Of a stretch of 64,000 bases of DNA, positions 1 through 27,798 are shown piece by piece (positions within the stretch are counted from its first letter, which is position 1; every line of letters begins with the position of its first letter). This DNA comes from Marsupella aquatica. Its lineage: Eukaryota; Plantae; Marchantiophyta. A model generated the notes under the pieces. The model worked only from the letters and a program-made list of their open reading frames with translations, had not been told where the DNA came from and searched no databases. Location: contig OZ316891.1 of NCBI GenBank assembly GCA_973895155.1, forward strand, positions 10,417,875 to 10,481,874, written 5' to 3'. Made by a program: the position numbers and the translations under genes.

Positions 1-1494
1 CACCATTGGGGGAAATAGTGAACCCTTACCAGAAGCCGATAGCTCTAGCAGATTGGTTCATTCAACATTTTAGTGAAGCAGGGGATTGGGTTGCTGATTT
101 ATGTGCGGGGAGTGGTTCCCCTGGGCCCTCACTCTTACTATATTAAGTGAACCCCCCTGAGAACACACACCCCCCGTGTACCCCTTCTTAATATTTTTGT
201 TCACAAAAAAAATCCCATTGTTAATGTAAAAATATTAACTTTTCCTATTAAATTTTATCCTTTTGTAAATTATAATAGAGTTTTTCAAGGAATTGAAAAC
301 ATCCTTGAATTTTTAGAATTACAAATATCATATTGAAATAGATAAAACTTTATCTTTCATAGGGGACTTGTATGTTATGCTCGATCTTCAAGGTACATAT
401 TTTATATATAAATAAACAAAATTAGTACGAGAGAAAATTATAGTTCTTCCTATAGTTTACACACAGCCATGCACTCTTGTCTTAGTGTTCGCAAAAGTGC
501 CTCTGAACTTCTAGTTTCATAAGTACTATATATGTATAATCCAGGAATAATACTCCAAAGTCTGAACCAACTATAACAAACATTGTTGAGCGCCTGAGAC
601 CCCTCCCTCAACACACAAACACATTTGGCCTCATACCTGGTTGTTTGATTCAAGGGAATTCAAAAGTAATCTTGTCCTTCCATGTGGGATTGATCCATGG
701 ATCCCCATCAATCCTAGTTTCCCAACCAAGTTGGGCCCAAAGATTATGGCCCAAAGATTATGGCCCAACATTTACTCAACTCCCCAGTTAACTCCTAAAC
801 ATGCGGGTAAACATGTCTACCCAAACCCATTTGTTTCACCATAAGGGGACCAACGAAACCAAACTTGCCTTAAGACGATAAATAATTAAATGTTTGATTT
901 ACTATATGGACACATGTGCAAATGAAGTGATGACATGTGTGCCAACCATATAGTGACGCTTGTACTTGGCATTTTGGGTACCCTTGCATAAGATTTATGT
1001 GACATGTATTTGATAAGAGTCTTATTACTAATATTATGGCGAATGTATATAGAGGGATGCTGCCTACTTTAAAAACTATTATAAAAATTAGTTTGCATTA
1101 CATTAAAAATACTCTTGTGTTGTTCGCACGTCCTCCCTGTATTCGTAACACTAAGGACCCAGGGAGTGGTTCGACCTCATGCGCTACCTTGTTAGGAAAA
1201 CGTCTGGTGACAGCCGTGGAGCTCAGTTCAAGCCACATGGATTGTATCCGGACCCGACTTATCACGCTGGATGAATCGTGGGACTTGAATGATGAAGCAA
1301 CAGAGGAGGGTACAGGACCCATGAGCTTTGAGGTTCAACCACCTATTGGTGGTACTACGAGCACCCTGACCACTGGAACTTGCATCATTACAACCGCGGA
1401 GGAGAATGACAATTATGAGGATGAAGAGGATGAAGTGGATGAAGTGGAACATGAAGCTCCGGCACTTGATCTTGGCTCATTCCTTGAGGTGTAG
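1..1494 (+). pseudogene. C-terminal part of a beta-class amino (N4-cytosine/N6-adenine) DNA methyltransferase, interrupted by a MITE; 5' part lies outside the window
   Basis: Frame starting at nt 3 reads PLGEIVNPYQKPIALADWFIQHFSEAGDWVADLCAGSGS. Removing the 119-1164 insertion and one TSD copy continues in frame into TSCATLLGKRLVTAVELSSSHMDCIRTRL and an acidic tail. This matches the N6_N4_Mtase C-terminal pattern (HPTQKP..L...I...S..GD.VLD.F.GSGTT..A....R..IG.EL). Confidence 0.85.
119..1164. mobile_element. Non-autonomous TIR DNA transposon (MITE, about 1.05 kb) with 8-bp TSD
   Basis: Termini CCCTGGGCCCTC...AAGGACCCAGGG. Flanked by the direct repeat AGTGGTTC (111-118 and 1165-1172). Removal restores the methyltransferase frame. 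Confidence 0.9.
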
Positions 1495-1517
1495 ACTTTA
1501 GTTTCATTAGTTCTCTC

Positions 1518-2182
1518 CCCTGGGCCCCCAGCATTATTAATAATGGGCTGGACGTGCGAACGGATGAAGGGTGCAAAAAATCTGATTTGAGATTAATTTT
1601 TATAATTGGCTTAGAAATATCAAGGGATGGTTTTATTCAAAGAACCTTTTCTAACTAATATAGGCTTATATAAATGTCACCCAAGTTAATATGCTTCAAG
1701 AGGTGATGTAATATGGATGTGACACGCGTCACAATAGGATTGGTCCTTGTGGTCACCCTTTATTGGAACATGTGTATATGACATATAATTATGCTTGCAA
1801 CATCTATGATTCAGAGTAGTTTAGGACTTTGGAGCTTTTGAACCCTGACTACCCTGCCATGTGGTTCAAAAATGCCCCAAAGTTGAAGTTTGGGGTTAAA
1901 GGGTCACGAACACAAAAATGTATGTACCCAAAACCCTTCTAAAACACTCCCATCAGTTTTAGAACCGTTTGCACATGATAAATTTATAACTTTTCAAGGC
2001 TTTCATAAATGGTGTAAAATGTGAAATTATAATATCTCAAAGGGGCAGATTTATTCTCCAAAATTAAGTTTTTAAGAATAACAAGAGAAATTTTTATAGG
2101 CTTCCAAAAATAATAAGGGGTACTAGGGAGGGGGGTGTACGCACGTATACCTCTTTAGTTTACAAAGGCTGGGGGCCCAGGG
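1518..2182. mobile_element. MITE (665 bp), related to 119-1164, opposite orientation
   Basis: Perfect 15-bp TIR CCCTGGGCCCCCAGC / GCTGGGGGCCCAGGG. 8-bp TSD GTTCTCTC (1510-1517 and 2183-2190). Confidence 0.93.
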
Positions 2183-2279
2183 GTTCTCTCATGTTGTATC
2201 TATTGATCCAAACTTGTGAAATATTGAGGAAGATTATGATTGGACTATGTTCTTATTTCACAAAGTAATGTCTTTGCAG

Positions 2280-3191
2280 GAACCAAAGGAGAATTTTTTA
2301 CTGAAACATGTTCTGCATAGATTCTCACACAATCCTTCTAGTGGGTTTCTTTTGGACAATAAAATATTGAGCCAACTTGAACCCTGTCAATATTTGGAAG
2401 ATGAAATAATGAAATTTTACCTACAATTAATAACCAAGGAACATGGAGATCTGGCTCACTCAGTAAAAACATTATCCTCTTTTTTTTACCCTTGGCTTGT
2501 TTCAAGGATTGAAACAGAACCAGCTGAGACCTTGTTGGAATCAATTCAAAAGATGCGGAATTATTACAAGCCACCATTTTCCCAAATTGAGGTCATTCTC
2601 ATGCCAATTCACATGAACATGCACTGGAGTCTGGTTGTAATATGTTTGGATCAGATTGAATCTTCGATCAAAATGTATCATCTAGACTCTCTTGCCGGTC
2701 TACACTCAACCCATGTAATTGGATCAATACTGAGCAGGTATGTATATATTCTATTACATTTTTTCCATTTTAAATTATTTATGTGGCATATAAATATAAA
2801 CACTTTGGACTAAGAACTTTGAATGATAATTTGCATATATTTTACAATGGAATGGGAATTATTTTTTGGAAAAGTTCCAATGGGAGTTGTGGAGATTTAC
2901 AATCCAATGGTAAGGATTTGAAAAGTTATTTCAACTTTTAATTAGTTGAATTATTAAACACTTTGGACTAACTTTAAGATTCTTTCTCAGGTACCTCAAC
3001 AACCAAACAATTCAGATTGTGGTCTATTTGTTCTTCAAAATATGGACGAAATCAGAATTCAATGGCATATTACACAATGCCTTGATGCACAGTCTTTATT
3101 TACCAAAAAATGGTACAACTCTAAAAGAGCATGTAACCTTAGAAAATTCATTCGAGATCAAATTCTAAAATTGATGCATGTACCTGTTTAA
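2280..3191 (+). CDS. Ulp1/SENP-family (peptidase C48) SUMO protease domain, transposon cargo, intron-containing
   Basis: YLEDEIMKFY...LSSFFY...ILMPIHMNMHWSLVVI...YHLDSL, then after introns (acceptor at 2990) VPQQPNNSDCGLFVL. The His/Asp/Gln/Cys catalytic set is complete. Confidence 0.88.
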
Positions 3192-3229
3192 GGACATCAA
3201 TCTCAATCCTCTGAAGGTGAAGAACCTCA

Positions 3230-6200
3230 CTCTAATTAGCAGACTCTATAATCTTTTTAGTTTTTGCTGCTATCTGATTAGTACTTAAAAGCGCAAAGTT
3301 GTATGCATACACCGCTGTTGATGATAAAACTAGTTCATCTTGGAGAAGTTGATTAGATATATTATCTTTCTCTGGAAAATATTTCCCATCAATAGCAGAC
3401 TCAGCACTTGCCTCAGTTGTGTACTATGTGATTTTGATTCTCTCAAGAATGTCTGCAGTTCTTGTCAAAATCTTTGACACCTTTGCCATCCAAAACAACT
3501 TGCCTTCTGGATCCTTGTGTGCCGCTACACATATCATGGACCACTTATTGTTAACTTACATATCTCTGAAATCTCCAAATTCAGCTTGCTTTCGTCGAGG
3601 TCCGGAGTACATAATTCTCTGTGGTCCAGCAACTTTGTCAACCAAAGTTGGATCAACACCTTTTTTAACAAGTTCATTTCTCACCCTTCGAAGTGTTGCA
3701 CCTTGATTTTGTTGCGGCCAAACCCACTCAAATAACCACTCACCTTCCTCTAGGTGGTTTTTGATAATATCTTTTTGTTTCTCAAAAAAACTCATCCATC
3801 AAAGTTTGTCTTCATTGTCAAAGTAATTGAAACCTTCCTGAATAGCTTTTTCATATTTCACCAGAGTAGTTAACGCACCATCTATATTGGAAGAATCATG
3901 GACATCATCCCTCTCAACACCTTTTGCTGACTTCAGTGACATTTGTGCATCAACCCACATTCTTGAAGTTGGAATGTAATTGACAAACGCCACTGCATCT
4001 CCCCAATCCTGGGTCGTGGAAAGATGTTTCCCGTGAAATGTTGTCTCTTCGTTTCTATCCTCCATGACTCGTTTGAATCTGAATTGCCTTTGAAAAGTTA
4101 TGAGATTGAGATCTCTCAAGACTCTACCTGAGACTCCCTTCTCATTTGGCTGGTCGGTTCCATTGACAAATTTTTGAAAATCGCTACTTCATCCACAAAT
4201 ATGATCAAAGCTTCAGGTGAATATGCTTGTCGAATAATATCCTCAAGAGTCTCCAAGCGAAATGCTTTGTGCTTGTTTAACCTAGATGAAAATTTACTAA
4301 ACATCTGATCTATCTGGTCATGTGTATGACCGACCAACAAGAAACCCACTTTAATCTTGTCAAAAATCTTCAAATCTACTAACATGTGAAGATAAGCCAT
4401 CAAAAATTTATTCTTGTTTTCCCTAGTGGTATTATCTAATTGAAGATATAACACTCTTGGTAATGTCCCATCCCATGTATTCAATACATTTTGAATAACA
4501 TGTATGGTCAAGTTTGCATCATTATGGATATTGGGATATGTCAAATATACTTTTGCTGCAAGGTTCCTGTTGAAGATGAGACAACCTACAACATGAATTG
4601 GAATGAAATATTTTTCATCCATATTCTTCGGACAACGAAGAAAATGTGGTAGCTTTGTTTTCTTTTGATCCATACCATCTATACAAATACCCAAATACTT
4701 GTTGGGTTCATCATAGCATTTTTTACGATGCTTGGCTAACTTCATCCTTTCCAATGATTGTACTTTTTGATGCTCCATAAGGGCATTAATGTACTTTCTT
4801 GAAATGATACAATAACAATGAATCAAAAATCAATAACTAAGGATAACCTTTGACAAATATTGAAGTACATGTCATCAAATTAAAGTTGAAGGTTGTAGTT
4901 AGTGGTGCTTATTTTTATCCTCTTCAGTTGTTGCTTTGTCCCAAAGAACCTTGAATTCAGTACAAGGACCATAAGTAGAAAATCGACTCCTTTTAGGTAT
5001 TCGTACATTTGGAAACTTTTTTTTCCAAACACGCAAAAAATAAGAATATGTAACTTGTTGTTCTTCTCGCAACATTGTTTCAGCTTCAAAGATTCCATGT
5101 ATATATCTCTTGCTTTGTCCAATTGTCTGGCAAGTGATGAATCTCTTTATGGGGAAGACTATCCATATTGTTTTGGAAAAAATCTTTCAACCATTCCACC
5201 AGGTTTAGAAATGAAGGTGAGTCTTCCTTACAAAAGGTATCTCGTTCAATCCTTGTAAACATGTTTGCATGGATTGTTGTCAATCTATTATTACCTAAAG
5301 AATATAGTTTCTTGAATCCTCCTCTACATATAGGTTGTCCATTTACACTATATCCACGAGAAGTACTACTACTGTTCATGATACAACCTCGTAGCAAAAT
5401 ATTTTTCTGCAAGTGTTTAAGACCAAAATAATACTTGCGTTGTTTTGAGCATTCCTCTAGACCCAGAGAGCTCAAGCAAAACTTGTCACAACAGGGATAC
5501 TTAAAAATATCTTTAATTTTGCATTTTTTTAGATTTGCAATGGTAAGTCTATCTTTTCTAATCATCTGATCTCTGATTTTTTTGGTGGGTCTTGTCACCT
5601 CTACTCTATCTTGAATAGTGTCAGGAGAACCTACCCCCTCACTATTTTCTAGTGAATTAAAATTCAAAACAAGAAGATCTTCTGTAGAGTTGTTTCCACT
5701 CTCCACATTTTCTGTAACTGTTTCATGAACAATCTCACATCCCAGGATCTCTTCAACAACATTTGAGGTTATAGCAGTCTCTCTGTCATTTGCAGCCACA
5801 TCTGATCTCTCTTCAGAGTCTTTTGAAAATGTAATAGGTGTTCGGAGATTTCTAGTTTGAAATCTTCTAATGATATTCACATCTTCAGTCGCAGTACCGC
5901 CCACTTGTCTCTGAGACTGTAATCCCAACCTAGGTGATTCTTCTTGACTTGAGGGCTCATCTTGACCATTGAATAATCTTTGGACAAGTTTCAATTTAGC
6001 ATGTACCCTTGAATTTTTGGGCCCTCTCTCCGGCAGCTCACTTCGCAACAATCTCCGAGGAATTTTTTGGACACTAGATCTCTTCCCTCTTTCGTTCTGC
6101 ACTTGCCGTCCAATGGAAGATCCAAAAACCTCACACTGCATCCTCGCCAAAGGGCTTCGAAGCCCCATGTTGTTAGTTTGACCATTCGGTGAAATAACCG

Positions 6201-7075
6201 ATGGGAATACCGATTGGGATCCATGGATCCCAACTTGTATTTGTCCTTCGGGACTTCGAAGTGAAAACTTTCCCACTTGCTGTTCTGCGTCATGACTTGG
6301 CAATTTTCCGTTGCGCAATACGAACTGGGATCCACGTATCCCATTTTGCATTCCACCATCGGAACTCGGGTTGGAAGTCCGCAAGATTGGTGACTCGGGC
6401 ACAGGATTCTGCAAAATACCATGAGGGAATACTAAGGAATCCATGAGGGGATACTAAGGAATCGTATTTGACCCATGGAATTTGGTACTGAAGGAGACGA
6501 AATAGGCAATTTGCATTCACCGTTTCTCAACATTCGAATAGGTAATACCAAGTTGGTATTCGACCCACCAAATTTGGCTCTGAGGCTGTCCCTCCCTGCA
6601 ATTCCGGCACATTCGGACTCCTCATTTGCTCAAACTGTGATTGAACACTGGACACAGCTATCTTCACTCCCGGAGAACAAGACATTGGAAAAACCAACAA
6701 AGATCTTCAGGCGGGCCTACATGGTAACGTTGTTCTTGGCATTAAAAACCGGGGCCTTAGTCTTCGAAGATCTATTGGGGTTCGCGGAGAACCAGGTGTC
6801 TCTGTCGTAGGAACTACATTAGGGTTCTTTACAAGTAGACGTCGTTTAAGAGGTTTACTTGGAGAGACATAGTATGAAATCGGAGCACCCATAACACTCC
6901 TACAAGACTCTGAATCGGACTCTGATTTCTCAGATTCTGAGGAAAATGAAATCTCTGGCACTACTCTCTGTGAGGCTGGTAATTCATTCATCAAACGAGA
7001 TGGAATAAATTTTTGAACAACATCTGGCAAAGATGCATCTGAACTATAAATTGATTCATCACTTGAAGACGCCAT
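3230..7075 (-). pseudogene. DUF7869-type (Sola-like) RNase H-fold DDD/E transposase, frameshifted
   Basis: ORF pieces 6707-7075, 5086-6444, 4116-4826, 3799-4119 and 3556-3795. Cys-rich N-terminal region CCDKFC...ICRGGFKKLYSLG. Core motifs ICIDGMDQ, LQLDNTTRENKN and FLLVGHTHDQIDQMFS. Superfamily assignment is from memory. Confidence 0.75.
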
Positions 7076-7855
7076 AGAGAATCAAACAAGGGTTGTATAG
7101 GAGTACGTATTCCTATCCAACAGAGATACTTCAGATTACAATATTCTATGAAAACAACTACTCAATAGTGAACGAATCTCAAAGTAATCACGAGAAATGA
7201 AGATGAAAAACAAATGCAAGCTCTTCCTTTTATAGTTTTCGGGGGCATTGTACACGTGGCATTCCCTGATTGGTCCGTACGAGGGTTTTTTCAAGTGAGA
7301 GTCTGTCTTTTCCAGGACTGCTGAAATTTAAATTGTAGATTTTCGAGGAAGTCGCCATGGATCCGAGTTGGTCTTCAAACTGGAATATCAAGGTATGCGA
7401 TGCAAAAACTTCAAAATGTAGAAGTTGAATACTAGATGGGATCCATGGATCCCATCTGGTATTCATCCTCCTATTTTCCCGATGAGTTTTTGGACTTGCG
7501 AAAAAAATGGGATCCATGGATCTCAGTTGGTATTCATGTCGAAAGATCTCCTGATGCAAAGTTACAGGTGGAAAACATTGAGGTTGAATACGAGAGTGGA
7601 TACTTGGATCCTGTCTCGTATTCATCATGCGTTATGGGCTAAAAAAATTCCGAACATGTCGTCGGGTTAACTTAACTAACTGTGTGAGTCGACTGTAGTT
7701 CGCGGTTAGTTTTTCGCAGTTTTCCGGTTTACCATAGTTAAAAATTCAAATATTTTTAACCCAAGGTTAAATGGAAGCGTCAAGAGAATGATTTGGTGCG
7801 GTTTTTGTCCATGTTCAATAGTTGAATCCGAAATGGGATACGCCGTATCCCATTT
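6214..7855. repeat. Dispersed palindrome family with core GGGATCCATGGATCCC
   Basis: 6214-6233 (perfect 20 bp), 6326-6343, about 7354-7364 (partial), 7426-7465 (40 bp, 1 mismatch), 7508-7525, 7585-7624, 7831-7855. Confidence 0.9.
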
Positions 7856-8154
7856 TCAGTTTGCCATTTTGAAGGCGAAAATGAAATCTTGTGTTTTCTT
7901 CATTTTGTTTGACTCTTGGATTTAGCTTTTAGAGGATCACGTGAAAAGCATTGTTTTTCTAGGTTTTGGAATTTGCCCTTTTTTTAGATGAAGTGTATCA
8001 GAATTCTGGATTGTAACAATTCTTTGTTTTTGTGTCGATAGTATCTCGATTTGAAATCCGATGTTGGATGCAATTTTGGATTCATCCTCAAAATAACATT
8101 TTTGATCTTAATTTTAGTGATTTTTTGCCATTTTTTGCAAAATTGAAAACACAC

Positions 8155-10938
8155 TTCTCGTTTGGTGGTCATACTTCTCGTTTGGTCCGTCACTGTGTTT
8201 GATGTGTCCATACCAGAGAGATTCACCACTCTTGTCACAGGATCATTAGAATTAGAGAGAATGGAGGCAAAGTCAGTTTTGTTTAGATTTTTCCTTTTCA
8301 AACCACGAGTATTTGGTGTGGTTATGAGAACTGTGTCATGCCGATGGGAGTCTTGTGGAGAGACAGTCCCAGTTGCATGTCCCTTTCTCTTCATTGACTT
8401 GGTCACGATATCTCCGTTAAGGGGAGTACTTCTTTCCAAATCAAAGTCCGCCGCATTGGAAAGAAGCATGTTGGTCGCATCTTCAAATAACCTCGGCGAA
8501 CCTGCTTGATCGGCGGAATGGAACGCCAATTCCCATATAGTCGGTCCCTTTCCTATGTTCAACCCTTTTTTATATGCACTATATCCCGCAACTTGAGACA
8601 GGGCTCGGTTTTGGTCAACTTTGCATGCTTCAAAAAGACCAACTTTTTTCTTTGTAGCCCAGGCTTTCATAGACGCATGCCTTGATTCTGACCCTGTACA
8701 ATTGGGAATCAAGGCACCTTCTGCGCTTTTGCTCTGCCATAGTCCGAATGCAATAATCAGTACTAGCATTGTATTACTAGCGCCCGACGCTGGCACCGAC
8801 AAGTATTTATAACATATGTGAAATACAATTGCAATTATGATTTTGGAACTTTGTGGACATGTTGGACTCAAATACGAGAAAATCATACGGTCAGCGTCTG
8901 GCGCTAATATAAAGTTGATGGAAATGAAAGACAAGAGAGGAGATGGATGTCATACCACTCGAATAAAATTGCCCCACTGGCGCCATTGAATAACCCACCA
9001 GGATATCCAGCTTTGTAGCATCATGAGCTTTCCAGGGACACAGTTTCCTGATTGCCACCAAACCACAATCTCTCAGGACACGCGATACGCTACCACAAAT
9101 GTTGGAGCGTTTCTTAGTTTCTCCCAAAGTCTCCGATGTTCCGATTGACATTCTTCAAGTACTCCTTCCTTGGAATGCCGATGGAAAGATTGATAAAAGT
9201 GAAATGCATCAGAGCGTTCCCTCTCCGGGTCTGGGTGTGCACCAAAAAAAACATTCCGCACAGCATTCCATCCAGCTTGTGCATTGTCCGCCATAAACCC
9301 TTGGATGACAACCTCCTATAATCCATTCTCCTTGCAAACCTCAATCATAACTCTCCAAGCCTTTTCGAAAGACTCAGTGTCTTCACCTTTCAACTCGCAT
9401 GTGAAAATTGTACATAGTGCACGGAAGTTATGGTCGTAGACATGCGCGCTAAAAGTCAACCAATCGGTTGTGATACGGTGCATCACATCAAAACTGACCC
9501 AGGCTCCTTTGAGTCTTCCACCAGGTTGCATTTGTCTCAAAAGATCCACACCGGAACCGTGACCCTTCATGGTCATTTTAAAGATGTGAGGCCTGTCGTC
9601 TTGACATCCCTGACCCCGGAGCAATACCTCTGGAGAAACGATAGGTTAATCCTCTTCTGCATTGGCGAGAGAAAATCTAGTTCACCCCGCCCCTTTTGGT
9701 CTATCCTAACGCTCTGACAAAGAGATGCAAACTTTTGGGGAGTGGAAAGTACCATCAGAGACTTCCATATTTCAGTTTCTTTGATATCAACCATGTCGTC
9801 AACATGTTTGCAGAGAGCTTTCACTATGGACCCTGTAGCAGAATTCAAGATCCCAGCTGGTTTTGCGAGAGGATTGGCTTCATGATTTTTTTAATTAAAT
9901 CCTCAGCCATCTTCTCCGCACTCCTACAGAAGGTTTTTCTACCTGGATGGATATGATCACCTATATGAATCGCCAAGCGGGATATATGACTACATGTTTC
10001 CGCATCAAGTAATACTTGCGGGTACATATAGAACAAACGGGCAGGCAGTCTTTGACACAAAAAGGAATCTGATCACAATAATGACATACAACACCGCCCT
10101 CTTTGATAAAAGATCTGACAGCATACGGACCACTAAGCTTTGGAGTACCGTGCCATGCCTTAGCATTTGCCTTCTTTTTCCTTTGGAAGTACTCGTAGGA
10201 CTTGTTCCGACATTCAATGAATCCCGTATAGGTAACCTTACCGAATTGCCAAAGTTTTTTTGGCTGAACATTCGCGGTAGTTGGAAATATGCATGTCCAA
10301 ATGTAGCAATCTTTGGCACGGTCCATGTCCCTAAGCCTAGAGCCTTTAGAGAGCATCTTGTCAATTGGTGGCAATTCAAACATGACGTTCCCATTATACT
10401 TAGTTGGCAGACAAGAGACTTGCTCATGTTTGAAATCACCCGCTGATATGAACCTTGATAACTCGCTATGACCAGTGGATTTGAGTAACGTATCCATCGC
10501 ACTCCACCGATACATGATCTCCAACTGGTTGGAGCTTCCTGGAGTCTCACCTTTAACGATAGCATATTGCGGGACTTTCATTTTCAACGTAGGACTTGGA
10601 GTGTGATCTCCATCTTCACTAGAAGAAATCTCGACAACATCAAATGGAACTTGGGGGACACTAGACGGTCCTTCATGTTATCTTACTCAAAGTGAGTACA
10701 AAATCCCCGCATATAGATGCCAAAACCGTTCACCATCATCCACATTGAATGTTGCTGCATCTTTGATGTCATCACTGGTTTTGAGCTCTCGAACAATGGC
10801 CTCAATATCATTCATCTTCAAATCAAATCTCCTGCAAAGGTGTCTCTCCCAAACCTGCTTGTAGGTGTCTTCCACAGGGACGGGGATGGTCACAATATCC
10901 CCAGTCTCGAATCGGGATAGAACGATGGACCGAGACAT
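8155..10938 (-). pseudogene. Mutator-like (MULE) transposase with N-terminal WRKY/GCM1-like Zn-binding domain, frameshifted
   Basis: CHYC..CVKDCPARLFY...RLAIHIGDHIHP (GCM/FLYWCH-like). WVSFDVMHR..W.TFSAHVYD. MADNAQAGWNAVRNVF...RSDAFHFYQSFHRH (DxxH in place of CxxH). WISWW. NCTGSESRHASMK. Intron at about 8734-8955. Confidence 0.78.
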
Positions 10939-11900
10939 TGCAATCGAAAACAAATAACAAGGGCTGTAATGTTTCGAGGAAGAAAAGTCTATGGTAATAT
11001 GGATCTTGTATCAGTCAAACCTGGGAACTTCATGTAAACACATCCGTTTGTATAAGACATAAACCATAGTCGACATAGGATCCGTTGGCGCCATAAATGA
11101 ATTTTGTCATTTTTCCCCGATAAGTCCGGATGTCAGACGCATACAGAATGCCAAAAAAGACACCACAAAAATCTTTAACAGACTCTAAGATATTGTATAG
11201 TTGAAACAATTTGAGTAGCGCCTGGCGCTAACTAAAATACCTCAAACATAATAGGCCCCAAATCTCGATATTCCATACTAGCGCTTGGCGCTAGTATACG
11301 AAAAACCCTCCAGATATCCATCAATACTATGAAATAATTGGATTTAAATGATCAATGAAAATGTCAATTCTTTTAGAACTATGGATGAAAAATACTCGTT
11401 ATCACTAGCGTCGGGCGCTAGTATAGGATACAAGTAATGTTTCCCAAAAACCATGAAAACAATACACATTTCTTTAAATATGGGGTTGTTTTGACAAAAT
11501 TTATTTATTGGAGCCACCATTTCAGACCTATTCTATAGCTGATGTTTTTACTAGCGCCGGGCGCTGCCATGACAAACATCCCAATTATCTACTTCAAGGA
11601 AAGGTATTTATAATAGCGCCCGATGCTAGTATTTCGTGTGAGGGAGGAAACGGTCATAACGGGAACATTTAACGGTAACTTCTGAGTTCCGTGTGTGTTA
11701 CCCCTCTTCTACCGCTTGATTTAGCTAATTCAGATCTCCGTATACAGACGTTGGAATCTGCCAAACTTACGAGCTTCTCCCTTTAATCGAAGAGTTCCGC
11801 TGAACTGCATCCTCCTTCTAGAATATATTACACGTTGAGAGTTGATGAGAGTTCCATAATTTCATTGTACGATAGTTTGTACGCTTCTGGAAGGAAGACG

Positions 11901-14900
11901 ATGGAGGTATTCCCCTCTTCATCCAGAGGGTATAGTGTTGTTCTTGACCAAGACCGAGCTTATTCTGAATCCTCACAGTCTTTGTTTACTGGTTCAGTTT
12001 ATACACGTCATGTAACTCGTTCCACAAAGTTGCTGCCTCCTACTTCTATTAGCGTTGTTTTGGTTCCTAAATCTCTGCGTAGAAAGATGGAGACCCTCGA
12101 CACGATTGCGATCCAAGATGTTTTGGACTGTGCACTTACGGAGACTGATCTCATCTCCAAACATGTCATGTGTTTTGGAAAGGATTCTCATGGATTTGAC
12201 AAGGAGCCGCCTCGAATCCCTCTATGCCAATTGGTTCACATGGAGGTGGTTTGTACTTTGCAGAAAGATAGCTCTTCCATCGAGAAGCTGAAAGACTCGT
12301 TTTGCAGTATGGGTTACAATTCATCCATAGGAATGCGTTTCTATGTGCAACCAACGAATGAAAATGGAATTGTTCTGACCTGTACCCAGGAGATTCGTGA
12401 GTCATGGGATCCAATTTGGCAATTGGAGAACGAGAAGTTTGAGGCCTGCTGAATGCGAGGCTGACCCAGATTTTCTCGTGTTGAAGGATAAGATGTTCTC
12501 TGTCTTCGATGGAAATCACAGGCTGTACTCATGGACGCTTGTTATCGAGGAGAACCCTGACAATCCAAAATACCATCCTCGAGTGCTCTGCACAATATTT
12601 AAGGGAGACAAGGGATCTCTTATTGAAATTGAGGCAACTATGCACACCGTGAATCAGTAAGTTCCCGTTCTTTTCTGATACCTTCTTTGAATCTTGCGAG
12701 TGTTCTATTTAAGAGCGCTCGGCGCTGGTTATAGATAAATTGTACTTTGACTCTAACTCGCTGCTTCTCTTTGTGTAGGCTTGGCCAAGCCGTTGTTGAG
12801 CCATCCTGGATCCTCGATGCAGATAGAATTAAACGCATGACCTTGAGTATTACAATAAACTGATTGACCCGACTAATTTCAAGAAGTTTGAGAGCATTCG
12901 GCTAAAGACTCGGAAGGGGTCGTGGTATACGAAGAAGATGCCACAAGAAGCTCTTGTTTACATTCTATGTGAGAATAAGATAAAGTCCTATTCGCACAAA
13001 TTCAAGCTTGACATGGAGGCAGCCAAGGCTCAAGGGAGTTCCTGGTTGGTGGACGAGATTTCCAAACGCCATGCGACCATGATGAAGGATGCAACCAAAG
13101 ACTGGGCAGTGAAATCCTCAAAAATTACACCCTTGTTAAGTCCTGAATTTGAAGATTTTCTTAGTACATGTGCAGAAATGTATGCTGTCACAGAGAGAAA
13201 CAAGAGAGAGAAGAAGCCTGACGCCGTTGTATGTACAATGGACCGCGCCCGATTGTTCACTGCTGTTTCTGCCCTAGACCCAAAGTTGCAAAGCACCCTA
13301 CTTGTGGCACATTGCAATCCTGAGTTGCGGAGACAGTTTTTCCACCCGGCAAGTGTTAACAACGACCCAGTCAAACAATGGTGTCATACTTGGATCACTT
13401 GGAATAGTGTAGAGGGAATTGCTGTCGGCATGTTACATTCATGTCTGCGTGAAGTAGAGCAAACGATGCTCGCGACTAGATTAGAAGAGTGGAATTGTGG
13501 TTTGTTTGATGATCTCGTTCAGTTTGTTACCAATGAATTCAAGAAATATGGTGATTCTATGAAGAGTAAGTTCTTTCACACTATGTGGCCTTCAAAGTAT
13601 CCAGACAAAGAAGACTATACCCAGAAAAACCAGAAGCGGGCTAAAAGGTATCTTTACAGGTTCTACATGCACATGGAGGTAACCAAACCTGATTACTTTT
13701 GGGCATATCCTGCAGCTTTCATGAAGTGGATTACAATAAGTGAGGATGACGCCATAGCTGATTTGTACTCCATGTACCTAGCGGAGGGCATATTTCCTCC
13801 GAGACCTATGACAGAATGGGAGAGAACTCACTGCCCCTGGTATCTAGATACAGATAGATGGGATTCTCCTTTTGATCAAAGGGAGAAAGATGCATTCCAT
13901 AAGCTTTCAAAGTCCCACCTACCAGCAAAAGTTGTGTCCAACATGAAGCAGGACCTGCTCGATGATGTAGACAAGTTTGCCACTGACTTGCAAAGTATCT
14001 ATGAAACGACTATTGTTCATGTGGACCGAAGTCGCAAACCTCATGCGAAAGCAAAAGCGGAGTTAGTAGCACCAAGCGAGTCAACAAAATCTGGGAGGAA
14101 AAGTGAGTATAGTGTTCCATAGTTTGGCCAGCGCCTGGCGCTGGCTTGAACTGTCATGCAAATCCACATTTCTTTCTACATTCTTAGGCCATTGTAGAAA
14201 CCTAAGTGATTTGCATTTGGTTAGCGCCTGGCGCTAGTTTGTTTGAAAACTCGGATTTACTTGTTCTAACTATGACCTATTGATAATTTAGGAGGGAGGA
14301 AGTCTAATACAGCGGGAATAGGAGATGCTAAAATGGATGCTACACCTGAAGTTTCTGAGGCAAACACCGGAGCCCGATCGGACCCCATTACTCCTGTCGA
14401 CAAGGGGAAGGTAATAGTTTCGGTCGACGCCACAAGTACCAGGAAGAAACAAACAAGAGCTATCAAAGGTGGACCTTCTTCAAGGGAGAGTGTTGTAGCA
14501 TCTGGTGTCCAACCTGAAGTTGCAAACTTCAAAACTAGAGTGTCTCGTCATGCCATGAGACAAGCATATCCGAATTTTTTTACTCGACTTTCAACAAGGG
14601 GGAAAAACCTGAATGGGTTAGTAATGTGGAGAAGTGGGGGAAGGATCTCGTTAAGTCGGGATATAAAGAGAAGGGTGTTGTGCGGGGAGGAAAAGAAAGA
14701 TAGTTTGGAATGGATGCGGGTTTCATTTATCTACCGACCGGGTTCAAACCAACGATCATAGATAAGAAGGTTCCTAAATGGAACACTCCAGATCACTCCA
14801 TGGCTAGATCTTTTTTCAAGTCCATGGATCCATTTCTATCAGATGATGGATTCCTTGCAATTCTACACAATGGGGAGTATGATCCCATGTCTCAAGTCAT

Positions 14901-16071
14901 TGCTGCATGTCAGGAGTCGAGAAAATTTCAGTGCATATGCATGCATAATGTTGTAATGTCTGTCCCGATGTACGCGGCAAAGATAGACCGTCAGGTAATT
15001 ATCTACTCTTAACTATATCACGTTTTGAGTTATAACTCATTTAACCTGGAGTTTCCAACTGACACTTGGGATTGCTTTCCGCAGATGTTTACCCTCAGGT
15101 TGGACATATTTGGTCGAATTAATGGGAAATGTAAAATTCCCAAAGACCCTAAATTCCGTCCACTATCCATCAGTGAGGACCCCTCGGTCACCAATTTGAT
15201 CGGACTCCTTTCTCTCAAATCTGATCCATTCCTGGAAATGGAGTTTTCTGGAAATGCTCGCCTATCTATCGGGTTTATGCAATCTGTCATCAAGCTTGTC
15301 ACCCGACCTCGTGATATTTTTATGGATTGGACCGCTGGGGCTGGAAGCTCCTTCACAGCTGGAGACTTCTCCGGGAGGTTTGTGCTCGGGATAGAACATA
15401 TATAGAAAAGAATTTATTGAAACCGCTTCGAAGGTTTTCATGGATTTGTTGTCTCCCAAAGAGATTGCGGTTTTACCTCCACCTGTTCCTATTGCCGACA
15501 GGAAGAAGCAAGATAAGCTTCGGTCAGTACTCAATTTTGATTCTGATGATGAGTCCAGTGAAGGTGGAGGTGGAGAGGAACAAGGTACAGGGGACTCGGA
15601 GGAGGAAAAAGAAGAACCTTGTGGATCTCCAGATGAAACCGATAGTGATGACTCTTTCGAGTAATGTTCATAAACTTGTAAGCTTCTTTCTCCATTCCCG
15701 TCAATTTATAACATTTCTGTGTTGTTTTGGAGAAAGGCACCTAACTTTCTGGATTTCGTTTCATCAGGTCAGAGTGGAATGCAAGGAGACGTTTCAAACT
15801 GTGGAGGAGGGTTGCTAGACACAACATAGAAACTCCAGAAAAACCTTTTGTTCTTCCCTCCTATGCAGAGAAAGCCACAAGGAAAGCCGAGAGTATAAGG
15901 ACGCTTTGCTGGGAAAATAAAGGTCTTCGGTTACAAAGGGGTGTTGAAAGGAAGTTCATTAAACATCCTTACGTGGATGATTTCTCCCGCAACCAGTACG
16001 TAGATGATGAGGCCGTATCCACGGACAAATCTGAGAGTACAGATTCTGGTTCCGAATCAGAATTTGCATAA
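11901..16071 (+). pseudogene. Multi-exon gene: N-terminal ParB/Srx-like domain, helical middle region, degenerate beta-class amino-DNA-methyltransferase domain, acidic tail
   Basis: RIPLCQL..MEVV.TLQ...IEKLKDSF..MGY...FYV and FSVFDGNHRL (DGNHR at 12508-12522). Motif-IV-like DAGFIYLPTG (about 14713-14742). IKLVTRPRDIFMDWTAGAGSSFTAGDFSGRFVLGIE (motif I at about 15325-15345). Introns at about 12657-12778, 14103-14291, 14994-15084 and 15661-15768. Several frameshifts, e.g. about 12450 and 15400. Confidence 0.72.
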
Positions 16072-16474
16072 TCGTGACACGTATTGAGGAATTTAGGGAG
16101 AAATCTTTTACCAGCGCCTAGCGCTAGTACCAACTTGTATTCAAATCCTCTCATTGGATCCTTATAAATTAATGTCTCATGACTTGTGTTTTTTACAAGC
16201 GCGAGGCGCTCGCCAAATGGTGATTCATAAAGCGAATATTTCCAGCTCTTATTTGTGTAACACGGCCGTTTGGTCTTTGTGGTGTCCTACCAACGGTCAT
16301 CATAATGAGACAAATAATAGGCAATAGATAGTGTAATATACGTTTCGGATACCAACGGCCATTTCATTTAGGTCCGTTAGTTTGCCAAAAAAACTCACAT
16401 CGATTGTATTCAGACGACATTTTTGGATCTCTAGGATGACATATTTGGATCTCTTGTTCACGATAGTTTTCAAG

Positions 16475-16560
16475 GACGACACTTTTCGCGGACGACAAGT
16501 TTTCCGACCGACGACTATTTTGGGACCGACGACCATTTTCTTAGACGACACTTTTCCCTC
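16475..16560. repeat. Short tandem array of GACGAC(N)TTTT units (about 16-20 bp, 5 copies)
   Basis: gacgacacttttc, gacgacaagttttc, gacgactattttg, gacgaccattttc, gacgacacttttc. Confidence 0.7.
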
Positions 16561-16688
16561 ACTTTGATTCTCGCGGTCGATAGTTTTTGTGCCCGCGACC
16601 ATTTGAGGACCTTTTGCGGGAGATATAGTTCAAGTGTTTCACGGGAGATATTTATCGCGGATGACATCTATCGTACCCACGACCGTTT

Positions 16689-17231
16689 GTGGACCTTTTT
16701 GGACCTTTTGCGAACAATTTTCACATTTTTTTAGAGGGTAACTTGACACTTGATCTGGCTCTATTCAACATGGACAGAAACGGTGAGCTCATGGATTGGG
16801 AGGCAGCGTTCCTCCCTTCTCGTGTGCGTCCGGAAGAGAGCCATTTCAGTTCTTTTGAGTCCCAGATGGAGACTGAAGCTACTGAAACCTCTACTTTCCA
16901 GAATCGTCATGCTCTACCGTATGATGAGGCTATTAGTCCTGGAGAAAAGAACATCCCGTGGATCGTCAATTCTCCTCCGCTCCCATTTGCAAATAGGTTC
17001 TCGTCTCATCAAGTTGTTCCTGTTGATGGTGTACTGCCAATCGACAGGAGAGTTCAAGAAATGTTTGGGCGAGTTGACTTTAAGGACAGTAATATTCCCA
17101 ATGAAGGTTTTACAAGGGCAGTGCGTCAGAGTCCTTCTGAGAGATACATTCAATTGTGTGGTCTTGGATTCAAGAAAAATTGGAGGAGAGAAGCGGTAGG
17201 AGTGGAGGATGATTGCAACTCTGAAAGCTAG
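16689..17231 (+). CDS. Orphan ORF inside the Mutator-like element, function unknown
   Basis: 180-codon open frame. No motif recognised. Confidence 0.3.
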   Translation: MDLFGPFANNFHIFLEGNLTLDLALFNMDRNGELMDWEAAFLPSRVRPEESHFSSFESQMETEATETSTFQNRHALPYDEAISPGEKNIPWIVNSPPLPFANRFSSHQVVPVDGVLPIDRRVQEMFGRVDFKDSNIPNEGFTRAVRQSPSERYIQLCGLGFKKNWRREAVGVEDDCNSES

Positions 17232-17890
17232 ATACAATCACTTATTGCTTGTTCCTCCGGTTTGTCACGAAGAACGGCATCACATTGTTCAGTTTGGTGA
17301 TCACTTTAAGCTAGCATCGAGCACTGCTTAATCTCTTTCGATGTTTCTGGATGGAGTCGTCTTTGGCTTAGTTTTTAGGGTTTTTCCCGGTTGTTGTCTT
17401 CAGGAATTCCATAGTTTTTCCTGCAGTTGTTGGCTAGCGCCGAGTGCTGCTTTTGTTTTACTGGCAATCCTCAGACGGGGTTGACCATGCCTTCTGCATA
17501 TCGGATTTCCACACCTGCACTTGTTAACTTATAAGTGCATTTTTTGGACCTGCGCCGAACGCGTTTTGTATTTTGCGACTATATATGACAGTTTTATTTT
17601 CCCCCTGCGCATTTTGACATATATTGGTCTCAAATTTTGTTTATCTCAATTGTGAGACGGTTTTATTTGTTGTAAACTACATGATTCCATTTAGTCCGAT
17701 TTCCTTTGACTCAAATTTGACCGTCTTGATTTCTATACCAGTAGTTTGAAATGCATATTTTGTCCCCTTTTTTGGTGATCAATGTTCACTGCTAGCCAAA
17801 CACTGTTCATTGGTAATAGTTTCTTTGGGCTGATAATAGTAACTGTTTGCTGTTACTGTTATCTGTTTGCTGTCGTTTGTAAATTTCCCC

Positions 17891-19375
17891 CATCCGGCCT
17901 CTCTTTGTGAAAAACATCTTCTTGGTTTCACCTTCAATGTCTGCAGGTGAGAAAGTTTAGCCAAATGTTCCATTCAAGTGGAACGGCTTTCCACGCGCAT
18001 CATTCTTTTTTATATTGATGCCTACTGGAATTTATAAGTAATCTTGGTTCATTAGGTTCAATTTCCCATGAAACGATGGGAATATCTTAGGACTTCAAAA
18101 TTTCAAAATTCAAGGCTAATCAAATCTGACCCAGGCATTGAATTGAATCAGACCATAGTTGCACGAATGCTTAACAATTTGCAAGAGAACTAGCATGGCT
18201 GAATTGATGTTGGTCGGCATATCAGTACTCTGTACTAAATCCTAATAAGCAACTGCATCGCTCACATTCTTATTTATGGATGCAAATGGGCTATTTTGGT
18301 ATTGTTGATACCTGCACCCACAGTGTCAAATTGTGTGAAAGTGGGGCCAAATGATTGGCCCGTTTTTGAACCCTGGTAGAGCTTCCCATCCGTATGGTAC
18401 CCATAACTATTGGGCACCCATCCTGTCGCGTTGTAGAAAGTGAACTTCTCATCGGAGAATCCTATGGTGGCACTTCCTAAACGTGTTGCACTCAGTCCTG
18501 CGAGGTAATTCACAGTGACCTCAAAATAGTAAAGCCCTTTTAGGGGGACTGGGTGGTCAGCCTGAACTGCCACTACATCATCGCGCGCCTATGCAATAAG
18601 CAAACCTCTTCATGTTAACATGGCAATATCGATCGCGTCTGATTGCGTCCAAAGAGCTGGGCAACTTAGGTTCCTCTACTTTGACTCCTTTACATCCCTG
18701 AAGACACATAATGATGAAGCCAATCTTTGACTGATGCTACTTTCATATTGCCACCTTGCCCACCAGAACTGGCCTCAACAAGTAAGGTAGAGAAGTCTGG
18801 ACGAAACCCCTTAATGCTATCAAGCTAGAGCCTAGAAGCCTGGTCCCAGATCCGTATTGTGTGAAGTGAGCAATTAAGAGTCGCACTGGCCACCATGGGA
18901 TAAAATATTTGCTACTACTTGAATGGAAGGAGGAATGGATGCTGGTCCAAATTGGGGGAAGAGAACTGGGCTTGACAAAGCCTTTCTTGAAACATGACAA
19001 CCGACTGCATCTTAATTGGTAGTCGTTGTGAAGAAAAAATCCTCATCTTGGACTTGAAATTGCAAGGTAGGCAAGAGAAGCTAATATATTCTCTACTGAG
19101 AAAAGTCCTTTCCAATTTGGGTCAAAAAGAACTGTCAAGGCTGATATGAGAGGTTGCGACTCTAGCTTCCCACCCAATCAAAACACAAGAACATTCTCAG
19201 TCATTTATTGAAAGGGTGGCATGAATGATGCCATTGTAGGTCTTGGACTCTGGAAGTTGATGGTTTGTCGATGCAATTTTTTGGTGAGTAGGTGTGAGTA
19301 AGTTCAGTTCTTGAATTCATGTCCCTTCTAGTCATTTATCCTGGAGGGTTCTCTTATCTGTTTAGTGCATCACCA
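17891..19375 (-). pseudogene. Copy A of the MFL1-carrier/SPRY chimeric segment (RanBP9/10-type SPRY), truncated
   Basis: AVQADHPVPLKGLYYFEVTV...IGFS...GWVPNSYGYHTDGKLY.GS...FGPTFT..DTVGAGIN. Near-identical to the reverse complement of 32853-34340. Confidence 0.8.
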
Positions 19376-23372: not shown

Positions 23373-23484
23373 ACAAGTCTCTACGCACTCTCTAGATGAG
23401 AAATTAGTGCAAGCTACAGGCTAGTAACCCAGGTCGAAAGTTCCTCGTGGTTAATACTGTTGCGACATTCTCTGTCATCCGACC

Positions 23485-26400
23485 ATGGATATGATGAAGA
23501 TGTTTACTGAGGTAGATAAGCTGGAAGGAGCCAGCAATCATTTAGCATGGACCATCTTTGTGAAGAATCTCCTGAAGCGTGACGATCTGTTCACGGAACT
23601 GAACTTTGGAGTCAAGCCGGATGCCAATGGTCAAGTTCAGGATGGTGGGGCACACCTGACTGAAAGTGAGATCGCAAAGAAGAAAGTGAGGGCCACCTCT
23701 ATTCTTGCAGCTACAGTGAAAGCTCAGTTCTTGCCCACTGTAGATAAGTACTCTGATGACCCAGCTCAATGCTGGGCACATTTCCAACAACGATTCGGTG
23801 GCGACCTATATCAACGCAGACTGATACTGGAAGAGAAGCTACAAACTGTTCGCATGACCGACGGCACCCCTGTTGAGAAATACATCAACACAATCAACAA
23901 CCTCGCTGGCCAACTGGCCAGCATGGATGCTGCCATCGATGACAACAAGCTCATTCACCTTGTGCTCCGTGGACTACCTGCGAGTTGGGGAACCTTTGTC
24001 TCCATCTTCTCTGCTGACCTTGCCCGTACACCACGACCTTCGTACAACAGCCTGCTGGAGCGTATGCAGGCCGAAGAGCTCTGGAAGCTCAATATTCAGT
24101 CACGTTTTGAGCCTACCGAGGAGGCCCTAATTGTGTCTTGGTTCAATCGATCCTCAGGGCGTGGAAGAGGCCGTTTCACCCCCAGACCTGTTGTCAGCTA
24201 TCCTCCTCGGGTCAACTCTTATCCGCGTGCAACCGGTGGACGCGGCATGCGACGCCCTACCTCCTGTAACTATTGTGGCAAGTCTGGACACTGGGAATCC
24301 GACTGTGACCTCAAAAAGGTCGACGAACAAATCTCGCAACTTCAAGTTTGAGCTGCCAATCTCCGACGTTTTCGTCCTCAGGCCAATCTAGCTGAAATAT
24401 TTCATGAAGTCGAAGCTCCGTATGATGAAGAAGAAGAAGCTGACCCGGCCGATGAGAACGACGACTCCGGTGCAGATTTGGAGGCCAATTTCATTGAGAT
24501 CCTCCCTAGCACTAGCACAAACGATTGGATTTTAGATTCAGGCACTAGTACTCACGTCTCTGGAGACAAATATGTTTTCTCTGGTGGCATGCATCACTCC
24601 AGTGGTGCCGGCTCCGTTGCCACCGCCAGTGGCACTAAACTCCCTGTTGTTGGAAGCGGTTCAGTCCATATTGCTCCCAATAAAACCGTCCGCAATGTTT
24701 TGTACGTCCCGGGTATGACACAAAATCTCATGTCCATTGGCAATCTCACTGACGCTGGCCACAATGTCTTCTTCAATTCTCACTCTTGTCTCGTCTTTGA
24801 CAAGGATAACCCTCAGAAGATCTTCCTACGGGGCACCCGAGATCCCAGGAATCACCTGTATCAGCTTCCATGATCTCTTCCCTCGATTTCTCCTCTCTGC
24901 ACCACCGCTCGTCTTCGACCACACTCTCTCGCTCAGCCGGCACCAATGCTTCTTGCTGAATCGTCTCCCATGGAGGACGACATTGACCTCTGGCACATTG
25001 ACCTCTGGCTCCATCACATGTCACATCATAACTTGGCTCATGGCCTACCTTCCATCCCACGAGTTCAACGCTCTTGTGAGACCTGTATTGTGGCCAAACA
25101 CCACCGCGATCGAGTTCCAAAATCATCTGCGACCCGTGCCTCCCGACCACTGGAGCTGATTCATTCTGACCTCTGTGGTCCCCTTCCTGCCTCCACTTCA
25201 CACCGATATATCCTCACTTTCATTGACGATTTTTCACGTTTCACTTGGGTATACTTTCTCTCTCACAAAAGTGAAACCTTCTCTAAGTTTCAGGAATTCA
25301 AGTTACTCGTTGAAAAGCAGTTGTCCATGAAAATCTCTTGCTTACGTTCTGACCGGGGTGGCGAGTACCTTTCCTCTGAATTCCTCACTTTTTGCCGACA
25401 ACACGGGATCCATCGTCAACTCACCGTTGCTCGCACTCCTCATCAAAATGGTGTGGCTGAGCGCAAAAACCGTACTCTCTTGGAAGGTGCCCGTAGTCTT
25501 CTTCTCAGCTCCAACGTGCCAATCAATCTTTGGACAGAAGCAGTTGCCACAGCCAACTACACCCAGAATCGATGTGGCACTCGGGCTCTCAAATTGATGA
25601 CCCCCTTCGAAGCTCTTTGGGGTCAGAAACCACACTTGGATCACCTTCGGATCTTTGGCAGTCTTACCTACGTTCTTCTTCCTCCGCATCTGCGCTCCAA
25701 GCTGGGCGCTAAAGCAATACGCACTGTTTTACTCAGCTACGACGCACAGTCCAAAGCATATCGGTGCTTTGACCCCATTCGTAAACGTATCCTTATTGCC
25801 TCCAACGTCAACATCATTGAAGGTTCCTTTTACGACTTCTCTTCAAATCAAGAAGCTGTCACCAGTCTCTTCTTTCCGTTGCTTACTGATCCTGAGTTTG
25901 GTCCATCGGCCCAAGAGGGGGCAACTGCAGTCGACAACCCTTCAACTGCTGACGGCAATATTGAATATGTGACACCCCCTGACGAGGACACTGAGACTTC
26001 GGCCTGCCCTACGGCTAACTCTTCTCAAACTAGATCTCCACAGATTCCGGCTCCAATTCATGCTGCTCGACACTCCCAACGTGTGAAGCGTCCCCCACCT
26101 TGGCATCAAGACTATGACATGAGTTGGAGGCCTGACCACATGGACACCTTTCTCATTGAATCAGCCAAACCTGAATCAGACGAAATCTCTGAGATTGAAG
26201 CTCTCCGCCACCTCCTGTGGCGTGAAGCCATGCAAGAAGAGTTTGAGGCTCTCATGGCCATGGGTACCTGGGAGCTTGTTCCTCTTCCTGTCGGCAAACG
26301 AGCCCTGTCTGCTAAATGGATCTTCTGGTCTAAACCGGATCTGAATCCTACCCGATTCCGCTTGAAGGCACGCCTGGTGGCTCGGGGTCTTGAGCAAAAA

Positions 26401-27798
26401 TACGGCATTGACTATTATGAGACATTTGCCCCTGTGGTCAAATGGTCCACTCTTCGCACTATCATTGCTCTGGCCGTGGCTCTTGGATGGGAACTGCATC
26501 ACATGGATGTTATAACAGCTTTTCTCAACGGCACCATCTCTGAAGAATTGTACATGCAACAACCTCGTGGCTTTGAAGTCCCTGGACTTGAACACTTGGT
26601 TTGCCGTCTGAAGCGGTCCCTATACGGGCTCAAGCAATCTCCACGGGCCTGGTATGAAGAGATCGACGCTTACCTTCAGCGCAATGGCTGGACCCGGAGC
26701 ATGGCGGACAACAATCTCTACTTTCTCTGCGAAGGTACCTCTATTGTCATTATCATGATTTATGTTGATGATCTCCTAGTGACAGGAAACGACTCTCACA
26801 AAATTGCCGCCGTCAAAGACCAACTCCACCAACAATACAAAATGAAAGATCTCGGACCAGTGCAGAAGTACTTAGGCATCGAATTTCTTCGCACTGATGA
26901 CGGACTTCTTCTTCATCAACATTCCTATTGCCAGAAGCTGGTCTGCGAATTTGGTTTAGCCAATTCTAAACCTGAGTTCATTCCCCTACCAGAAGGGCAT
27001 GTTCTCACTTCTGAGACCAACACACCTCCTGTGGACATCACCGACTACTGCCATGCTGTTGGGAAACTCATTTTCCTCACTCACACCCGTCCCGACATTG
27101 CCTATGCTGTTGGCATCGTTAGTCGCTACATGACCAGGCCTCAACAACGACATTGGGACTCTGTCAAACACATTCTACGCTACCTCAGCCATACCACCGA
27201 TCATGGCATTTACTACTCACGCTCACCTGGAATTTCTCTTGCTGGCTACACCGACGCTGATTTTCTAGGCTGCCCTGAGACTCGCCACTCTATCGGCGCT
27301 TACTGCTTTCAGCTTGCTTCCGGACCCATTTCTTGGTCCAGCAAACAGCAACCCACCGTGTCCGATAGCACCACTGAAGCAGAATATAAAGCTCTTTCTG
27401 AAGGCGCAAAGGAAGGGGTCTACATCCGCCGCTTACTTAACGAGCTTCACATTACCTCCCCTCTTCAGGTGCCTCTTACCTTTTCTGGTGCTTCTATTCA
27501 CTCGGACCTCTCACTGGCCTCTTCCCCTTCCTCTCTCGATCTCCATTTGCACTGCGATAATCAAGGCTCCATTAAGCTTGCTAAAAATCCGGTCTTTCAT
27601 GCTCGCACCAAGCACATCGAGGGCAAGCACCACTTTATTCGTGAGCGGGTGCTAGAGGGGGAAATATCCCTCGCATATGTTCATTCTTCTGAAAACCCGG
27701 CTGATTTATTCACAAAACCTCTCGGGCGACTCAAGTTTGAAAAACACAAATCCTTTATTGGAGTCAACTCGGTTACACAAATATCTGCCGCCACATAA
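23485..27798 (+). pseudogene. Copia gag-pol polyprotein with two in-frame TGA stops
   Basis: Gag with CNYCGKSGHWESDC knuckle; protease WILDSG; integrase IHSDLCGP..LRSDRGGEY..NGVAERKNR; RT YVDDLL; RNase H YTDAD..DNQG. ORFs 23485, 24478 and 24946 share one frame, separated by stops at 24349 and 24871. Confidence 0.95.

Follow-up and report, generated by a model that had tools for sequence, protein, structure and literature searches.

Dispersed palindromes in the predicted non-coding DNA of a Mutator-like transposon from the liverwort Marsupella aquatica: candidate binding sites for a ParB-like accessory protein

The element and its two divergent genes

This analysis concerns a Mutator-like DNA transposon, and the palindromes scattered through it, in a 64,000-nucleotide stretch of the genome of the liverwort Marsupella aquatica (contig OZ316891.1, positions 10,417,875 to 10,481,874). 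The whole stretch is referred to here as the window, and positions are counted from its first letter. The element is a dead copy from a multi-copy family; divergent contigs on positions 1-18400 number in the thousands in public runs (7,151 in run X1), which indicates that the family has many copies. It carries a transposase gene and a divergently oriented accessory gene, and 14 copies of one palindrome, 13 of them already pointed out in an earlier sequence-only reading, lie in the introns of these genes, between them and downstream. On the left the element is truncated by another one, and on the right it extends no further than 17887, where another repeat starts. Long terminal inverted repeats and target site duplications of 8-11 bp were looked for and neither was found. 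The best inverted match, of 21 bp (7801-7821 versus 16760-16780), was rejected as the termini because both the sites and the coverage run past it.

The transposase gene (8198..10938, minus strand) is truncated near 8197 by the neighbouring element, with loss of its 3' part, and is further broken by stops and frameshifts. It encodes a zinc finger and a D..D..E transposase, with conserved D(VMH), D(NA) and E(SRH) motifs and Cys/His clusters; a SWIM-like CxC..CxH tail is present in the transposase of one relative (L005). From its motifs we take the protein to be Mutator-like; there was no match in Pfam, NCBIfam or the PDB, and no family library recognises it. Its 11 homologues include one that is named, from Riccia sorocarpa. 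The intron at 8734..8955 (GT..AG, phase 0) occupies the same position in the homologues and in four related loci (L001, L005, L008, and L012). Relatives of the transposase and of the accessory gene were absent from the viral and prokaryote contigs searched.

The accessory gene (11901-16071, plus strand) is also broken, and it would be spliced into a single protein of about 1,200 residues consisting of a ParB-like domain, a helical middle and a methyltransferase-like domain. Exon 1 (11901..12656, with a frameshift near 12444) encodes a domain with a DGNHR motif. Exon 2 (12779..14102) encodes a region of 440 residues, predicted to be mostly helical. The part at 14292..16071 encodes a linker, a beta-class amino-methyltransferase-like domain and an acidic tail, with introns at 14995-15084 and 15661-15767. 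Comparison with homologues upholds several of the modelled intron borders: in addition to the transposase intron, the donor at 12657 coincides with the point at which four of five homologous open reading frames stop, and the intron at 14995-15084 agrees with spliced homologues. The weakest borders are those at 14103-14291, where introns 14103-14187 and 14206-14291 are supported by splice signals, by frame and by homology resuming at 14292, and where another frame can be read without a stop from 14070 to 14234. In runs X1 and X3, some contigs miss exactly the 90-base intron 14995-15084; these may be transcripts, or DNA copies that lack the intron. A 153-codon open reading frame (16770-17228) lies downstream of the accessory gene and is followed by two of the palindromes; it had no Pfam match and may represent a third gene of the element.

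The DGNHR motif is of the GxxR, Box II type, a nucleotide-binding motif that follows a beta strand; it is invariant in all six aligned relatives and present in the window. Among the five homologues of exon 1, matches to ParB-type families were weak but concordant: the PHROG ParB-like family phrog_1033 (E 0.054, two of five members) and the DGQHR family TIGR03187 (E 0.06, one of five). Searches with tblastn for this domain gave nothing in plasmids and only matches with E values of 4-6 in phages. Structure models of the DGNHR domain and of the middle region (predicted local distance difference test [pLDDT] scores of 43 and 46, respectively) were too poor to judge the fold, and fold searches gave no meaningful match for either. 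For the middle region a search for longer proteins came back empty, all Atlas matches were sub-0.9 and no family was found; this region is a candidate for the DNA-reading part of the protein.

The catalytic motif (motif IV) of beta-class N4C/N6A methyltransferases is (D/N/S)PP(Y/F/W). The C-terminal domain of the accessory protein has the beta-class fold, with motif IV preceding motif I, and its profile matches DpnA (E 5.6e-7) and CcrM (E 4.7e-5); all four homologues of the domain that were scanned also matched PF01555 at E values of 3e-5 to 2e-3, below the curated cut-off. There were 73 matches to the domain, and the five that were named among the ten looked up are all from liverworts (Calypogeia fissa and Riccia sorocarpa). 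A motif I-like DWTAGAG is kept and motif IV is degenerate. None of the 37 homologues that cover motif IV has the canonical sequence, the typical form being xLPT with a single DPPT; a 4,783-residue match (P0083) was left out of this count as spurious. As judged from these motifs, the domain probably does not methylate. Self-methylation of a restriction-modification type was rejected on account of the loss of motif IV. In the label ParB-methyltransferase given to this gene from sequence alone, the ParB part is weakly supported and the methyltransferase part refers to a domain without its catalytic motif.

Palindromes in introns and spacers

Motif counts were taken over the whole window, and expected values were set against the 13-mer AGCGCNNNGCGCT. 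The window contains eight exact matches, all within 11217-16210, where 0.01 is expected, and 13 matches with at most one mismatch, where 0.34 is expected. Twelve of these 13 fall within 8779-17448; the only one outside, at 29469, was rejected as chance. The copy at 11615, the 13th in the sequence-only reading, has two mismatches to the 13-mer, and an additional copy at 17312, heavily deaminated with four C>T/G>A changes, brings the total to 14 sites. The pattern first described from sequence alone is confirmed.

The symmetry of the site continues outward past the 13-mer. Symmetrised column counts give a full site of RCYAGCGCC-N-GGCGCTRGY in which the centre base alone is free. The invariant 3-nt spacer that had been described does not survive this analysis, as the putative spacer is C-N-G in eight of 13 copies and one transition away from C-N-G in four more, and a related element described below has no free base at all. 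A search with the 15-mer core at up to two mismatches gave 12 copies in 7850-17800 and not one in the 54 kb of window sequence outside that interval. The flanks of the sites are mutually unrelated (best pair 24 of 50 positions identical, mean 16), in agreement with the original description, and on this low identity tandem duplication was rejected as the source of the window sites.

Two sites are in the transposase intron, at 8778..8792 and 8892..8906, and five lie between the divergent genes, at 11216..11230, 11279..11293, 11406..11420, 11552..11566 and 11614..11628. Three are in introns of the accessory gene: 12713..12727 in the intron at 12657-12778, 14129..14143 in the modelled intron 14103-14187 (placed by its GT..AG borders and frame) and 14222..14236 in the modelled intron 14206-14291. 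The rest, which include three of the original 13, are downstream of the accessory gene, at 16112..16126, 16197..16211, 17312..17326 and 17435..17449. None of the 14 touches a modelled exon, and with 31% of positions non-coding the probability of such a placement is about 1e-7 (3e-7 for the original 13, whose distribution of 2, 5, 3 and 3 was as first described). The feature is real and non-random, and the sites are element-specific and confined to predicted non-coding DNA.

Perfect copies of the core occur at 11216, 11552, 14129 and 14222. One G>A change is found in each of the copies at 8778 and 16112, one C>T change in that at 8892, and two transitions in each of the copies at 11614 and 17435. 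The five imperfect copies of the sequence-only reading do deviate from the 13-mer by C>T/G>A alone, whereas under the wider consensus the copy at 16197 is atypical, with one transversion in its core (C>G) and two others at its edges. Over all sites, core deviations amount to 14 transitions and one transversion (P 0.011-0.025 against the element background, in which transitions make up 64-68% of changes). This tally includes the copy at 17312, which was chosen for being deaminated; without it the count, made by hand, is 10 transitions in 11 changes (P ~0.09), which is not clearly above background.

Comparison with other copies of the family separates decay from inheritance and supports only part of the original proposal of methylation-driven decay. 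At 11285 (C>T in the window) the other copies carry the consensus C, as most do at 17445, and these two changes are private decay of the window copy. Some deviations, in contrast, were inherited or can be tolerated: at 11411, three of four runs have T more often than any other letter, and 11557, within a site that is perfect in the window, is T in 32-58% of other copies. The two changes of the 11614 site (11623-11624) are unlisted as variable in the family. Taken together, the polymorphisms at 11411 and 11557 and the lack of listed variation at 11623-11624 indicate that the fifth core position tolerates T. Between 11190 and 11650 there are 34 variable places among other family copies, four in the 105 nt of the five sites and 30 in the 356 nt outside. 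This overall depletion falls short of significance (P 0.078). Transversions among these variants number zero inside the sites and 16 outside (P 0.015).

Palindromes can fold as RNA or as single strands, and five of the sites are intronic, so that hairpins affecting splicing or transcript fate have to be considered. The arms of the site do not co-vary within a copy (25 of 56 outer-position pairings versus 24.0 expected, P 0.44), and the outer degenerate positions thus lack compensatory pairing. The sites had no match in Rfam, five of them lie between the divergent genes, and both G>A and C>T changes are seen whichever strand is transcribed. The eight inter-site spacings below 200 bp are near whole helical turns (P ~0.004, post hoc). 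The lack of co-variation, the helical spacing and the lack of an Rfam match favour a site read in duplex DNA, and we consider an RNA or single-strand function very improbable.

Relatives of the element and the candidate binding protein

Relatives of the element were collected as 24 loci (L001-L024), many of them short coding fragments. At L001 the transposase is 53-65% identical to that of the window, and the transposase intron, at the same position, contains three palindromes, ATTGCTAGYGCYGGCGCTAGCAAT. The half-site in this sequence is that of the window and the centre base is missing; the intron in which it sits could not be aligned to the window intron by blastn. At L008 and L018, where the transposase is about 32% identical, a DGNHR gene lies in the same divergent position (E 2e-21 and 3e-16 with profile A4), and the stretch between the genes holds 10 and 8 palindromes, respectively, within repeats about 135 bp long; L007, L009 and L019 display the end of the same array. 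The columns of these repeats are compatible with a core of GCGCC-GGCGC that has undergone C>T/G>A change, which covers 38 of 43 and 30 of 35 deviations. These two are the only loci of the 24 at which the DGNHR gene was detected. In L003, L004 and L023, which represent one element with up to 10 kb of upstream sequence, the core is missing and no DGNHR gene could be detected, and the core is absent from 4.5 kb at L005. At L024 (1900-2620), a tandem array with an ATACCC-N6-GGGTAT palindrome lies upstream of a related transposase, at a distance of about 8 kb, and a DGNHR gene was not detected there.

The combination of enrichment, non-coding placement, partial constraint and a half-site kept in a relative makes a binding site for a dimeric protein, as proposed from sequence alone, the best-supported reading of the palindromes; the absence of arm co-variation counts against its RNA counterpart. 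We propose that the ParB-like accessory protein encoded by the element binds the 14 palindromes as a dimer, in duplex DNA, and regulates the element in cis, probably against host methylation, and we put the probability of this proposal at about one in two. Each subunit would read one YAGCGCC half-site, and the methyltransferase-like domain would serve as a module that binds DNA or methylated bases. Occupancy of many sites along the element would then regulate it in cis, most plausibly by keeping the promoter and introns clear of silencing by host cytosine methylation, much as VANC does for VANDAL elements. The CG- and CHG-rich sites of the dead window copy would have begun to deaminate.

The protein that binds could also be the transposase, acting through its N-terminal zinc finger in self-activation or in assembly of a transpososome. 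A related core tracks related transposases, and the AtMu1 transposase alone is reported to bind and hypomethylate its cognate copies (10.64898/2026.08.24.746577). That same account places the AtMu1 transposase peaks at terminal repeats, whereas the window sites are internal; several relatives of the transposase (L005 and L004) lack the core, and the published algal arrays go with ParB-like genes on unrelated transposases. We regard binding by the transposase as unlikely. A dimeric transcription or chromatin factor of the host, recruited to the sites and exploited by the element, would account for the recurrence of a GCGCC-based core in distant relatives, as expected of a conserved host motif, and for the five sites in the promoter region. 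Against this reading, the motif is missing from the other 54 kb of the window, its centre differs by one base between relatives, and the neighbouring element carries an unrelated palindrome; a host factor seems to us improbable.

Binding may not be involved at all if the palindromes were left behind, as neutral relics tolerated in non-coding DNA only, by the formation of hairpins, by tiny insertions or by gene conversion on a local scale. One of the L001 palindromes (L001:1165-1240) extends to a near-perfect hairpin that measures about 60 bp and has arms of about 30 bp, a hint that sites may be born through local inversion, and the L008 and L018 sites are embedded in tandem repeats; the non-significant depletion of variants is also compatible with neutrality. 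In the window, in contrast, flanks are unrelated and arms neither extend nor co-vary, L001 has kept its core within an otherwise unalignable intron, and transversions are absent from the sites among family variants. We regard a neutral origin as improbable.

A number of observations weigh against binding by the accessory protein. Clear copies of the core were found in one of the 24 loci only, and that locus, L001, spans 2 kb and is too short to show whether an accessory gene is present; it is also the locus with the long hairpin. The core at L008 and L018 is a reconstruction in DNA with an observed-to-expected CpG ratio of 0.23-0.25, no copy there is within two deaminations of the reconstructed core, and the repeats are tandem where the window sites are dispersed. 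The correlation of gene and sites rests on about two families with both and one with neither. Two of the five accessory-gene introns (14995-15084 and 15661-15767) are free of sites, and the helical phasing is absent from L001 and from the neighbouring element. On the protein side, it is the splice model that predicts one protein with all the domains, the ParB assignment is weak (E 0.054 and 0.06, in few members), the DGNHR domain has no sequence match in Pfam or the PDB, and neither a helix-turn-helix or other DNA-binding motif nor a dimerisation domain was identified in the middle region, for which the model reached a pLDDT of 46.

A more specific form of the accessory-protein proposal, which we consider distinctly unlikely, is that the protein acts as a ParB-type, nucleotide-driven sliding clamp with an anti-silencing role. 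The clamp would load at the palindromes as at parS, spread from them, and grip or shield cytosines through its dead methyltransferase domain, and one-base shifts in half-site spacing would keep the families orthogonal. VirB is a ParB-type clamp used for anti-silencing (PMC10770331). The window element resembles bacterial ParB/parS and VirB/virS in its GxxR-type motif and palindromic sites. It differs from ParB/parS in that no ParA, helix-turn-helix or dimerisation domain was identified in the element, and many ParB-fold proteins are not DNA clamps.

Comparison with known systems and neighbouring elements

Among published systems, a similar protein architecture is described for Sola1-1_Ec32 of Ectocarpus, which encodes a protein of 1,104 residues with ParB and N4C/N6A methyltransferase domains, proposed to bind and modify its own element (PMC12477816). 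As in the window, ParB-like and methyltransferase domains are joined in one gene on the strand opposite to the transposase, with a product modelled here at about 1,200 residues; this likeness is one of domain description. The window element differs in being Mutator-like and resident in a land plant, in the loss of the catalytic motif from 37 of 37 homologues covering it, and in having dispersed palindromes that could be mapped and compared between relatives. The red-algal Plavaka elements have a ParB-like accessory gene, PAG3, beside inverted-repeat arrays that are proposed to be self-binding sites (10.1101/2025.02.11.637652). The pairing of a ParB-like accessory gene with inverted repeats inside the element is shared with the window; PAG3 is instead fused to a 2-oxoglutarate (2OG) oxygenase, with the methylase encoded by a separate gene, PAG2, and its arrays are tandem and adjoin the gene, whereas in the window each site stands alone and the sites are distributed over introns and spacers. 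Fusions of ParB to an N6_N4 methyltransferase are described as common in phages (PMC12704722).

In Arabidopsis, VANC binds non-coding motifs of VANDAL21, and anti-silencing has been demonstrated there (PMC5735166). VANDAL21 with VANC21 and the window element are alike in being Mutator-like, in having an accessory protein, and in carrying short motifs, specific to the family, within introns and between genes. The VANC motifs lack palindromic symmetry, share one orientation and have spread through tandem repeats, while the window sites are palindromic with unrelated flanks and among the relatives only L008 and L018 have them in tandem. Anti-silencing, shown for VANC, would extend to the window element by analogy of description. 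A beta-class amino-methyltransferase fold is known from a liverwort in MpDN4MT1 of Marchantia, which belongs to the host, retains the TSPPY motif and deposits N4-methylcytosine (4mC) (10.1101/2021.02.12.428880); the window domain has YLPT in place of this motif and is transposon-borne.

Literature searches, with a coverage that leaves out most subscription papers, turned up neither the element nor comparable sites in bryophytes. VANDAL is described as the one known case of a transposon that binds its own sequence and modifies it (10.1101/2025.02.11.637652), and ParB-type accessory proteins of algal transposons have the status of a proposal (10.1101/2025.02.11.637652, PMC12477816). The window system may be a land-plant, Mutator-borne version of the self-recognition module proposed for algae, with a methyltransferase domain that is probably dead. 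If so, plants would have a second means of transposon self-protection, one derived from bacteria, and there would be a family of programmable-looking protein-site pairs. The published algal architecture limits the surprise; what the element contributes is a candidate site that is sharply delimited and comes from a land plant, with a natural one-base spacing variant in a relative. As there are liverwort relatives, in a group with a transformable model, the idea is directly testable.

The DNA to the left of the transposon (window positions 1-8197) belongs to a second multi-copy element. This element terminates with CACTGTG near 8197 and truncates the Mutator-like transposase gene; in run X5, loose ends fall at 8199. 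Its genes include a DUF7869 transposase (4116-4829, minus strand), a Ulp1 protease (2220-3190) and the tail of a methyltransferase (3-143; PF01555, E 1.4e-4). It has palindromes of its own at 6215, 6326, 7437, 7508, 7596 and 7834 (and 692), of the approximate form GAATAC-N4-TGGGATMC-AY-GKATCCCA-N4-GTATTC, which lie upstream of the gene and in its probable first intron and are unrelated to the motif described above. This neighbour is thus a second methyltransferase-bearing element with its own sites. A further element with terminal inverted repeats (CCCCTGGGCCC...) occupies 118-2183 and is apparently inserted in the neighbour's methyltransferase gene. Elsewhere in the window, a copia-type long terminal repeat retrotransposon with long open frames lies at 23455-27798, and the repeat that starts at 17887 (17887-19000) recurs near 33200-34300 and 45300-46500.

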